DNA of 30,929 nucleotides, taken from contig CAXCBS010000001.1 in the NCBI GenBank assembly GCA_963980845.1, positions 1 to 30,929 of the forward strand, read 5' to 3'. Both the position numbers and the translations under genes were made by a program. The stretch is from an uncultured Candidatus Peregrinibacteria bacterium. Lineage in GTDB: Bacteria; Patescibacteriota; Gracilibacteria; UBA1369; UBA12473. A model generated the notes under the pieces. It was given only the letters and a program-made list of their open reading frames with translations. It had not been told where the DNA came from and did no database searches. Positions 27,870 through 30,900 of this stretch are shown one piece after another. Position 1 is the first letter of the stretch. Every line of letters starts with the position of its first letter.

Positions 27870-28844
27870 TTAGTTTGTACGCGCGCACAAATTCCGTAAA
27901 TAATGGTCTGCAATTACGAGCCAAGCCATAGCCTCTACAACAGGTACAGCACGGGGGGCAAGGCAAGGGTCGTGGCGACCATCTATTTTAACTGAGGCGG
28001 TTGGTTTTAGGGCGACGCGTAGGGTTATTGGTTTTCCATTGGTGATTCCACCGTAAATGCCGGTTTCAATTTCATTATTTTCAGATCCTTTTAGGTTTGC
28101 AACATCAAATCCAGCTCCGTATTCAAATCCAAGAACAGCGTTAATTCCGAGCATGGCTTTGGCTAAATCGGCTTTGAATTTATCAAAAACAGGCTCGCCG
28201 AGTCCTACTGGACAGTTTTCGATTTGAGCCTCAATAGTGGCACCGAGTGAATCACCAGCTTCTTTGGCAGCTAGAATAGCTGTTTCCATTTGCTTGGCAG
28301 TTTCGAGGTTGGCGGCACGTACTGTGTTTTGCTCAATTACCGTCAGATCTGGGTCAGAGTAGGTAAGATCTCCAATTTGTTTGGTATAGGCTGTTATTTT
28401 AACTTTAGGGAGGATTTTCTTGGCAATGGCAGCGCTAGCAACCCGCATAGCGGTTTCGCGGGCCGAAGATCGTCCGCCGCCACGGTGATCGCGGTGTCCG
28501 TATTTTAGTTCGTAGGTTTCGTCAGCATGTCCTTTTCGAAATTCGTTTTTAATTTTTTCGTAATCTGCGGAATGTTGATCGCAATTATGAATTATGAGTG
28601 AAATAGGAGTGCCTGTGGTTTTACCTTCAAAAACTCCGGATAGGATTTCTACTTTATCAGCTTCATCGCGGCTTGTTGTTACGGCGCTTTGTCCCGGTCG
28701 ACGTCGATCTAAGTCTGGTTGAATGTCAAATTCAGATAGTTCTAGTCCGGCTGGGACACCATCAATAACCGCGCCGATAGCTTTCCCGTGGGATTCACCC
28801 CAGGTAGTAACGCGGAATATTTGTCCGAAAGTGTTTCCCGGCAT
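27870..28844 (-). CDS. aroC: Chorismate synthase (compact, 324 aa)
   Basis: TTWGESHG, RRRPG, GKTTGTPI, GHAD, GGGRSSARETA, GGITNG, KPTAS and GRHDPC signatures. Confidence 0.94.
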   Translation of the reverse strand: MPGNTFGQIFRVTTWGESHGKAIGAVIDGVPAGLELSEFDIQPDLDRRRPGQSAVTTSRDEADKVEILSGVFEGKTTGTPISLIIHNCDQHSADYEKIKNEFRKGHADETYELKYGHRDHRGGGRSSARETAMRVASAAIAKKILPKVKITAYTKQIGDLTYSDPDLTVIEQNTVRAANLETAKQMETAILAAKEAGDSLGATIEAQIENCPVGLGEPVFDKFKADLAKAMLGINAVLGFEYGAGFDVANLKGSENNEIETGIYGGITNGKPITLRVALKPTASVKIDGRHDPCLAPRAVPVVEAMAWLVIADHYLRNLCARTN

Positions 28845-28855
28845 AATAAGAAAAA

Positions 28856-29560
28856 TTAAGCTTCTTCTTTTTCTTCAGCTTCAGCTTCCTCGGCAGGAGC
28901 TTCAGCTTCCTCAGCAGGAGCTTCAGCTTCTTCAGCAGGAGCTTCAGCTTCCTCAGTAGGAGCTTCGGCAGTTTCTTCTGTCTCAGCTTCAGCTTCTTCA
29001 GTTGGTTCATCCTTGGCTTCGTCCTTAGCAGGAGCCTCTTCAGTTTCTTCTGTCTCAGCTTCAGCTTCTTCAGTTGGTTCATCCTTGGCTTCGTCCTCGG
29101 CAGGAGCCTCTTCAGCTTCCGCCTCAGATTTTTCTGGTTCACTATCTTCGGCTTCTTCTTCTGAAGCGCTCGCTTCGCTCTCGCTGGCGTTTAATCCACG
29201 ATAGCTTTCACGTTTTTTCTTAAGTTTTTCCTGTAGTTTTGCTTCTTCAGCGTCTTCTTTGTCACGCTCTTTTTGTAGTTCTTCATTGATTTTGTCTTCA
29301 ACAGAGTTTACAGATTTTTTCTTAGGTCCGCGAGCTTGAATTTCAGCTTGTTTAGCTTCGGCAGCCTTGCGTGCTGCTTCGAATTTCTCAATGCGTCCAG
29401 CAGTGTCTACAGTTTTCTTTTTACCAGTGTAAAAAGGGTGACATTTGGAACAGAGCTCAGTGGAATAAGATTCTTTAGTTGAGCCAACAGTGATGACGTT
29501 TCCACAAGTACAAGTGATAGTGGCGCCGTCGTGGTAAGTTGGATGAATTCCAGTTTTCAT
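28856..29560 (-). CDS. rpmE: 50S ribosomal protein L31 (zinc-binding type) with a ~160-aa charged and acidic C-terminal extension
   Basis: MKTGIHPTY...CTCG...[10 protein letters not shown]...GRIEKF in the first ~70 aa, continuing in frame into a K/E-rich then E/A-rich low-complexity tail. Confidence 0.92.
28880..28963. repeat. 4 x 21-bp near-perfect tandem repeat encoding (EEAEAPA)-like units
   Basis: TTCAGCTTCCTC(G/A)GCAGGAGC-like units start at 28880, 28901, 28922 and 28943. Confidence 0.9.
28969..29112. repeat. 2 x 72-bp tandem duplication encoding EEAPA(E/K)[18 protein letters not shown]
   Basis: Near-identical copies start at 28969 and 29041. Confidence 0.9.
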
Positions 29561-30900
29561 GATTTAGAACGTGATTTAGAAGATTTTTTAGTCGATTGCT
29601 TCTTATCAGAAGCGGAGGAAGTATATTTCATTAGAATCAGGATTGCAAGCGCAAATAACAGGATAAATCCGATTGTCAAACCAAGTACTCTGGCTAGTTT
29701 GTTTTGAGTAAGGTTTAAAACTAGTTCTCGAAACTCTCCGTTTTCATCGAAAACTTGCAAAACAGAGGGGAGCAACATATCTGATGAAATGGTAGTGCGA
29801 TACTCAGCTTCTTCGCCAAGTAAGCGCCCATCTTTGGTAAACCAACGGAAAATCATTTTACTAGAGTCACCGTCAGGGTCATAAGAATTAGCAGCACTTA
29901 AAACAATTATTTGATCGCCAGTATCAGGGTCAGTGGCTTGATATTCTTCATATTCAATAACTGGGCCATGATTTTCGGGATATTCATCTTGAGTGTCTAA
30001 TAAGTCATCGTTGTCATCATTGGGGTCAGCGTTGTTACCAACACCATCGGAGTCTGAGTCTACCCATTCGGTTTCATCTACTGGGAAAGAATCTTGTCCA
30101 TCATTATAGCCGTCACCGTCTGTGTCTGGGTTTTGGGGGTCAGTGGTGGTGGTGTTGGAGTTGGTGTTGGTGTCTCCAGTTTCTCCTTCTGTGGAAGATA
30201 AGAAAATTCCTTGTTCTTCGTCATCTGTTAAGCCGTCATTATCATCATCATTGTCAGCGTTGTTTCCTTGGCCGTCACCGTCTGTGTCAGTAGTTTCGGT
30301 AGGGTCTAGAGGCAAATCGTCTTCTTCGTCATTAGTGCCATCATTGTCATCATCATCGTCAGAGTTGTCACCAACGCCATCACCGTCAGTATCAGTGGTT
30401 TCAGTGTCATCAAGTGGGAAATCATCTTCTTCATCAGGGGTTCCATCATTGTCATCATCTGGGTCTTGGGAATTGCCAACACCGTCACCGTCATAGTCGT
30501 AATCAATAGTTTTAGTAAAAGAAGTGGAATTGTTGTCAGTGTTATCATTCGTGTCATCCCAGGGGTAAATTGTGACATTAACCTCATAAGTGCCAGCCGT
30601 AGGTGTCCAATCAACAAAAACTGTGTCAGTGTTTTCACTTAGAGCAGAAACTGCCTGATCAGTCCCAATTTGTTCTCCTGTGGTTAAATTCAAAAATCGA
30701 ACCGACCCTAATTGGTCACGATCGCTAGAATTATGGATCGTGGCGTAAATGCGCACGGTTTGATTATGGACAATGGAGGTGTCGGAAAGGGAAATCGTGC
30801 TTTCTGATAGCCAAAGATCGGAAGCTTGCACTAAGGGAGCCCCTATAACTAGGAGAGAGAGGGCAATGACCCAGATACATGCTCTTGAGGAAAGACGCAT
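29557..30900 (-). CDS. Membrane-anchored surface protein: signal peptide, CARDB-like domain, thrombospondin type 3-like Ca-binding repeats, PKD-like domain, C-terminal TM with basic tail
   Basis: Signal peptide ending in VQA. D(T/Y)DGDG...DDDNDG repeats. [11 protein letters not shown]...FRW (PKD-like). C-terminal hydrophobic helix followed by [15 protein letters not shown]. Confidence 0.82.
29968..30504 (-). repeat. 35-aa-period TSP3-like Asp-rich repeats
   Basis: [35 protein letters not shown], then [35 protein letters not shown], then [20 protein letters not shown], plus later partial copies. Confidence 0.85.

Follow-up and report, generated by a model that had tools for sequence, protein, structure and literature searches.

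A ribosomal protein L31 with a conserved charged helix and a repeat-built acidic tail, among at least six acidic-tailed ribosomal proteins of a Candidatus Peregrinibacteria genome

Few proteins are as highly conserved as those of the ribosome, of which bL31, a bridge protein, usually measures 65 to 80 aa. The window analyzed here, a 30,929-nt stretch of DNA from an uncultured Candidatus Peregrinibacteria bacterium, contains an rpmE gene whose frame runs through 234 codons without an internal stop, as seen in both the ORF list and the translation, which is 3.3 times the usual length of about 70 aa. This raises the question of what the additional residues are, whether they belong to the protein, and whether they are a peculiarity of L31. 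A first-pass annotation of the same DNA had described the protein as tripled in length, which the residue count bears out, and had placed the feature at 28856-29350; this range does contain the extension (residues 71 to 234) but excludes the core, the full ORF being 28856-29560 (Table 1).

Table 1. Positions of the features at the rpmE locus and of the tailed ribosomal protein genes elsewhere in the genome
Feature	Position	Strand	Description and basis
rpmE CDS	28856..29560	minus	234 aa; TAA stop at 28856-28858; ORF list and translation
bL31 core, residues 1-66	29363..29560	minus	Zn ribbon and HPFYTG...D..GR...F segment; Pfam, alignment, AF2
Basic linker, residues 67-86	29303..29362	minus	PKKK patch; low conservation, AF2 coil
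Charged helix, residues 87-128	29177..29302	minus	E/K/R-rich; AF2 and conservation in family
Polyanionic disordered tail, residues 129-234	28859..29176	minus	E/A/D/P/T low complexity; pLDDT, composition
72-bp tandem repeat	28950..29119		x2.4, 91% matches; TRF, codon listing
21-bp tandem repeat	28877..28966		x4.3, 94% matches; 7-aa unit EEAEAPA; TRF, codon listing
ATGA overlap, rpmE start codon and stop of upstream membrane-protein gene	29557..29560	minus	ORF coordinates, sequence
11-nt spacer, rpmE stop to aroC start	28845..28855	minus	ORF coordinates, sequence
Gene upstream of rpmE	29557..30900	minus	447 aa; ORF list
bS6	C19:7329-8072 (L087)	minus	247 aa; E/A/P/K-rich acidic C-terminal tail
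bS16	C126:1658-2218 (L088)	+	186 aa; E/A/P/K-rich acidic C-terminal tail
uL10	C34:9331-10254 (L089)	+	307 aa as called, probably ~284 from an internal Met; acidic E/A/P/K-rich C-terminal tail
bL25	C81:5776-6447 (L094)	+	223 aa; E/A/P/K-rich acidic C-terminal tail
bL19	C122:977-1633 (L135)	minus	217 aa (218-aa open frame); acidic E/A/P/K-rich tail; 132 bits

With respect to the identity of the protein, the Pfam model Ribosomal_L31 (PF01197, 65 positions) matches residues 1 to 61 at 89.6 bits (cut-off, 27), and the NCBIfam type-A equivalogs NF000612 and TIGR00105 score 88 bits (cut-off, 70) and 84 bits (cut-off, 38.35), while the type-B model NF002462, at 46.9 bits, falls well short of its cut-off of 86. 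All four Zn-ligand cysteines (CxC ... CxxC) are found, at C17, C19, C37, and C40, and on every sequence criterion tested the protein is classed as Zn-type L31 (type A, C+ form), in line with the Zn-type core of about 70 aa proposed in the first-pass annotation. It shares with canonical type A bL31 (Escherichia coli RpmE, Thermus, and Mycobacterium) the four cysteines, the conserved HPFYTG...GR..F segment, and the status of a single-copy ribosomal protein, and its residues 1 to 66 match solved chains at 66 to 69 bits. Across a 26-sequence alignment (A1), the columns H41, P42, F43, Y44, T45, G46, D52, G55, R56, and F60 are invariant, the last four lying in the D..GR...F stretch through which bL31 touches the 30S head, and the core is 86 to 94% identical to those of the closest relatives. 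The structure predicted by AlphaFold2 (AF2) from a 26-sequence alignment places beta-strands at residues 10 to 34 (pLDDT of about 92) and a helix at residues 56 to 76 (pLDDT of 76 to 94), the latter including the conserved GR...F segment. The best named relatives are CPR metagenome-assembled genomes (MAGs) assigned to Moraniibacteriota, Peribacteria, Uhrbacteria, and Saccharibacteria, with 50 to 69% identity over the core. A second L31 match was not found in the protein's own genome (1.43 Mb in 224 contigs, 88.8% complete), and from the status of rpmE as the sole L31 gene we infer that the protein is incorporated into the 70S ribosome and sits at bridge B1b/c. The exact 234-aa sequence is absent from a collection of 15 billion proteins.

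The difference from canonical bL31 lies in the 168 residues that follow the core. The 45 matched chains of solved structures are mostly 39 to 97 aa long, the longer ones (125 to 148 aa) being an L16-L31 fusion, chains in which the L31 match starts 36 to 50 residues in, or the type B form, and none of these 45 PDB sequences has a C-terminal extension nearing 165 aa. The extension described here begins with a basic linker that is 40 to 45% identical to those of the closest relatives and that AF2 renders as coil (residues 77 to 86, with the PKKK patch; pLDDT of around 63). It continues as the K/E-rich helical segment pointed out in the first-pass annotation, which AF2 predicts as one unbroken 42-residue helix (residues 87 to 128; pLDDT of 91 to 96) that would measure about 6 nm if straight. 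Residues 67 to 122 consist of 25% D/E and 29% K/R. Within the genus, helix residues 87 to 122 are 75 to 83% identical between species, and the helix can still be made out in further genera of this family (L009, L013, P0006, and P0007); it has conserved I/L positions, which could mark a binding face. As an E/K/R-rich segment predicted to form a single helix with pLDDT above 90, it resembles ER/K single alpha-helix domains, but such spacers are mostly not conserved in sequence, whereas this one is, which suggests a contact surface. We consider that the helix probably makes a contact or serves as a stiff stalk.

Residues 123 to 234 (112 aa) comprise 47% D/E, 26 to 27% A, 8% P, and 6% T, with a net charge of −48 and one bulky hydrophobic residue, and pLDDT, which is a mere proxy for disorder of the tail, remains below 50 across residues 129 to 234, where no structure is predicted. 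The low-complexity E/A/D/P/T tail of the first-pass annotation is thereby recovered, as are the 72-bp and 21-bp tandem repeats from which it was said to be built, both of which TRF detects (Table 1); translated, the two complete 72-bp copies give 24-aa units that differ at two residues. Compared with the closest relatives, the tail is about 25% identical with heavy gaps, and the likeness is one of composition only. Judged by these alignments, the extension is made of two parts of unlike evolution, a conserved helix and a tail that is free in sequence and length and constant in charge.

Low-complexity GAA/GCT DNA leaves several frames open by chance, so that an open frame alone is weak evidence for translation; the +1 frame of the tail DNA is likewise open and would read as a basic, K/L/R-rich peptide. 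That the tail belongs to the translated product is indicated by the tight spacing of the locus, the in-frame tails of congeners, repeated assemblies of relatives' genes, and codon usage. Downstream, the aroC ORF (27870-28844) follows at the short distance given in Table 1, and without the tail a compact operon would hold about 500 nt of noncoding DNA; among relatives, the gap between the L31 gene and aroC is equally tight at any tail length. All four species of the genus encode L31 proteins with in-frame acidic tails (168, 174, 200, and 234 aa), and the long L31 proteins of relatives are letter-identical on 6 and on 11 independently assembled contigs (ENA, JGI, and NCBI). The tail codons favor GAA, GCT, CCT/CCA, and ACT and shun GCG and CCG, a usage that agrees with that of the rpmE core, of other ribosomal protein genes, and of the genome. 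Misassembly of this short-read contig could have altered the exact number of repeat copies.

Among close relatives, L31 proteins span 138 to 234 aa and their tails about 18 to 112 aa. The acidic tail is kept in 4 of 4 species of the genus and in all 7 of the other close or family-level relatives' sequences inspected; in two close relatives, P0004 and P0005, it is only about 18 aa long with the helix kept, indicating that a long L31 tail is not required. Within a sister species, the L31 gene of the representative genome (L016, 200 aa) and that of a metagenome contig (L112, 186 aa) show no mismatches over 561 nt, and their sole difference is one 42-bp in-frame indel corresponding to exactly one repeat unit, in flanking DNA that is 99.5 to 100% identical. 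This difference represents a strain-level copy-number polymorphism, or possibly the collapse of one unit by the assembler; the 42-bp unit is short beside typical read lengths. The first-pass annotation had proposed "recent or ongoing expansion" of the repeats and had called for a comparison of rpmE lengths and copy numbers in relatives: the spread in length and the one-unit difference within a sister species support that proposal.

A separate observation concerns P0022 (JGI), which belongs to a sister genus. Its L31 is 204 aa long, lacks the cysteines, and is interrupted around the Zn ribbon by 14 inserted residues, and it retains the charged helix and ends in a long acidic tail, indicating that the family holds both C+ and C− forms of L31 with the same extension.

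At the level of the order, an L31 match was found in 39 of 41 genomes, all of them extended (open frames of 91 to 235 aa), and in a sample of the phylum, whose genomes measure 0.4 to 2.1 Mb, L31 was found in 386 of 401, the 150 frames listed measuring 73 to 201 aa and mostly 85 to 140 aa. The tails of the 20 longest frames extracted from the phylum sample are 23 to 100 aa long and range in net charge from +24 to −22. Among the L31 proteins found (those of the order, the phylum frames listed, and the 20 longest extracted), the 234-aa protein is the longest and the most acidic. The L31 tails of other families, in the order as in the phylum, are basic or neutral, indicating that no single charge is universally needed, and from these sequences tail charge is lineage dependent, being basic, neutral, or acidic. 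The basic, A/K/P-rich (histone-H1-like) tails of other CPR bacteria (P0012 to P0027, L141, L144, and L151 to L154) occupy the same position and are likewise of low complexity and prone to repeats, but they differ in charge, with net values of +16 to +24 compared to −48 in the 234-aa protein. In P0012 to P0027, a conserved KWGxPxGDxPAEEVxKEE motif follows the core and precedes the basic tail, and by its sequence this extension is organized differently. A search of proteins of 411 to 2,000 aa for an L31 core, which would have revealed fused or longer forms elsewhere, found none, although this is weak evidence.

The acidic tail is not confined to L31. A genome-wide scan for acidic low-complexity segments followed by Pfam annotation recovered bS6, bS16, uL10, and bL25, and a motif search recovered bL19, all with acidic tails, which measure 38 to 135 aa (Table 1). 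Together with bL31, the six tails sum to 582 residues with a net charge of −186. The bL19 tail is overlapped by a spurious ORF of greater length that runs antisense to it, and the number of tailed ribosomal proteins is hence at least six, as others may have been missed. As controls, bL17 (127-aa frame) and bL21 (114-aa frame) are of normal length, and uS2 (281-aa frame) is at most slightly long. The uL10 frames measure 258 to 309 aa in the genus versus 174 to 210 aa in the rest of the order, and the bS16 frames measure 182 to 213 aa versus 106 to 207 aa; since both are longest in the genus, tail growth appears to have been concerted in this lineage. Of the 1,453 called ORFs, only three, namely, bL31, uL10, and bS16, contain the hexapeptide EAPAEE (three times each), which is additionally present in bL19. 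A shared origin of the tails or gene conversion between them was rejected, as the longest DNA string common to any two ribosomal protein tails is 20 nt, which points to convergent composition and codon use. The L31 tail is thus one instance of a lineage-wide habit of placing charged low-complexity tails on a subset of ribosomal proteins, and this habit probably recurs in the phylum. Directly downstream of bS16, a KH-domain-like protein (C126:2237-2662, plus strand; KH assigned by eye) has an acidic A/P/E/V-rich tail end (…APAEEAAPVEEAAPVEETAP…), and at least one ribosome-associated protein is therefore tailed as well.

With respect to the composition of the genome as a whole, about 7% of crude ORFs hold acidic low-complexity stretches. 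Many other ORFs (e.g., C20:2559-5501, C54:264-956, C54:1452-2231, and C101:2204-5134) contain extreme acidic low-complexity runs whose flavor is unlike that of the ribosomal protein tails, consisting of EEEEVV repeats, D/W/E-rich runs, or DDDDGG repeats, and these ORFs are mostly without a Pfam match. The crude proteome is net acidic, with 14.3% D+E against 11.0% K+R and a median pI of 5.7. The first-pass annotation had remarked that several cytosolic enzymes in the window are very Lys-rich; this is true of three window proteins (K above 10%, pI above 9.5) but does not describe the proteome, and the idea of a Lys-rich cytosol in need of an acidic chaperone was set aside on the same grounds.

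Encoded acidic tails of this kind can be compared with a known modification. In E. coli and Pseudomonas, RimK adds a posttranslational poly-glutamate tail of a few to about 15 Glu to bS6 and is not known to extend other ribosomal proteins. The RimK product is likewise a polyanionic C-terminal tail of a ribosomal protein that projects into solvent, whereas the tails observed here are genetically encoded, 38 to 135 aa long, and present on six proteins including bS6. Enlargement of ribosomal proteins in CPR bacteria, L31 included, is already known: L31, S6, and L25 are listed among the large ribosomal proteins of these bacteria (Tsurumaki et al., bioRxiv 10.1101/2022.01.07.475337). The trait shared with the enlarged proteins in the parts of that preprint consulted is a large L31, with which the lengths predominating among the listed frames of our phylum sample agree. 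A term search of the preprint returned "acidic" zero times and "extension" once, and its retrieved passages do not mention charge, repeats, or a conserved helix. Likewise, a full-text literature search combined with a term search of the papers, as far as their text was retrieved, found no description of acidic tails on CPR ribosomal proteins, the sole relevant statement being the one on the large size of L31, S6, and L25.

We put slightly better than even confidence in a composite reading in which bL31 is a three-module protein with a slippage-driven tail, one of at least six tails in a ribosome-wide anionic fringe; the descriptive part of this reading is much firmer than the function inferred from it. 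The core is expected to make the contacts known from other bacteria, with the central protuberance of the 50S subunit and with the head of the 30S subunit, and the helix would serve as a stiff stalk or spacer, or as a 30S-head docking element, keeping the tail clear of the intersubunit bridge. The tail grows and shrinks through replication slippage of in-frame 21-, 42-, and 72-bp units, while selection on composition, not on sequence, would keep the tails acidic, interspersed with prolines, and devoid of hydrophobic residues. The six tails would jointly surround the ribosome with a fringe that is hydrated and negatively charged (an electrostatic or entropic brush), that would cut nonspecific sticking of ribosomes to one another, to nucleic acids, or to basic proteins, and that might buffer or bind cations, an effect that would probably be quantitative and dispensable and not a discrete switch. 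The retention of the acidic frame in all relatives inspected, despite an open +1 frame, argues for selection on charge. A more far-reaching version, which we put forward only tentatively, holds that the ribosome of the genus is purposely covered by at least six encoded polyanionic disordered tails (about 580 residues and a net charge of about −186) that form a selected and evolvable "anionic brush" whose length is rapidly tuned by slippage, with the bL31 tail held away from the 30S head by the conserved 6-nm charged helix. If true, the brush would alter, inside an ultra-small cell, the contacts that ribosomes make with each other, with cations, and with mRNA or the nucleoid, and these bacteria would have in it a protein-based analogue of the expansion segments or acidic stalks of eukaryotes.

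Other explanations account for part of the same evidence. In the main one, the tails may be a near-neutral by-product that has no function, with GAA/GCT-rich DNA slipping at an exposed, unconstrained C terminus and yielding a harmless acidic peptide of which only hydrophobic or basic variants are purged. The wide range of tail lengths among close relatives, down to about 18 aa in P0004 and P0005, the copy-number variation inside a sister species, the unconserved tail sequence, and the acidic low-complexity segments in roughly 7% of ORFs all fit this explanation, and given that last figure a mutational bias could explain much of the pattern without function. We nonetheless regard it as possible without favoring it, as it sits poorly with an acidic frame held in every family member examined although the +1 frame is open, with tails on the same six ribosomal proteins while bL17 and bL21 have none, with a tail motif (EAPAEE) limited to ribosomal proteins, and with the joint lengthening of the L31, uL10, and bS16 tails in the same genus. 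An L31-specific regulator, in which the tail at bridge B1b/c serves as an RNA mimic, as a modulator of subunit association or hibernation, or as a tether for a partner, seems improbable to us. In the 70S structures of E. coli and Thermus, bL31 touches the 30S head with its C-terminal part, so that the extension emerges near the bridge, helix residues 87 to 122 are conserved almost like the core, which would suggest a specific contact, and the L31 tail is the longest and most acidic of the six. However, equivalent tails are found on five ribosomal proteins at unrelated sites (bS6, bS16, uL10, bL19, and bL25), close relatives keep the helix with nearly no acidic tail, in other parts of the phylum L31 has a basic or neutral tail, and no candidate partner was identified. 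The first-pass annotation had framed the possible roles of the tail around the position of L31 at bridge B1b, and this framing is not supported, since the tails at other sites together with the 18-aa tails of P0004 and P0005 make a bridge, RNA-mimic, or tether role specific to L31 less likely than a general property of the ribosome surface. Least probable is an artefact, whether through misassembly of the repeats or because the tail is absent from the mature protein (untranslated or proteolytically removed). The genome is a short-read MAG broken into 224 contigs, the exact protein is missing from the 15-billion-protein collection, and low-complexity DNA leaves several frames open by chance, but the same in-frame architecture is present in all congeners and family members, the proteins of relatives have been assembled identically many times, the tail stops 11 nt before aroC as in relatives, and codon usage is typical of coding sequence, with the exact copy number alone being liable to error.

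Under the composite reading of an anionic fringe, the six-protein set together with the conserved L31 helix is of more interest than the L31 tail alone. Six ribosomal proteins have each gained about 38 to 135 acidic disordered residues, which indicates a ribosome surface that is evolving quickly, and in the sister species the tail copy number is still changing between near-identical genomes. The tailed ribosomal proteins could guide cryo-EM and cryo-ET of CPR ribosomes, in which rRNA is reduced and assembly factors are fewer, and the repeat copy number could be used as a strain-level marker. In addition, long ribosomal proteins should not be thrown out as errors by annotation or length filters. 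The importance of these results is tempered by the earlier reports of ribosomal protein enlargement in CPR bacteria, by the commonness of low-complexity tails in the genome, and by a function that is only inferred.

We also made several observations on the neighboring genes. The 447-aa protein encoded upstream of rpmE gave no significant Pfam match. It has a signal-like N-terminal segment and a C-terminal transmembrane helix followed by a K/S-rich tail, and it contains many DxDGDGxGNxxDxDDDNDG repeats that by eye resemble calcium-binding, thrombospondin-type-3-like repeats; its gene includes a 105-bp DNA repeat (x2.2). Downstream, the aroC ORF shares 97 nt with the tgt ORF as called, which starts from a TTG at 27966. 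The Pfam match of tgt starts at residue 44, and the protein is 404 aa long here compared to 379 aa in a relative, indicating that the true tgt start probably lies further downstream.
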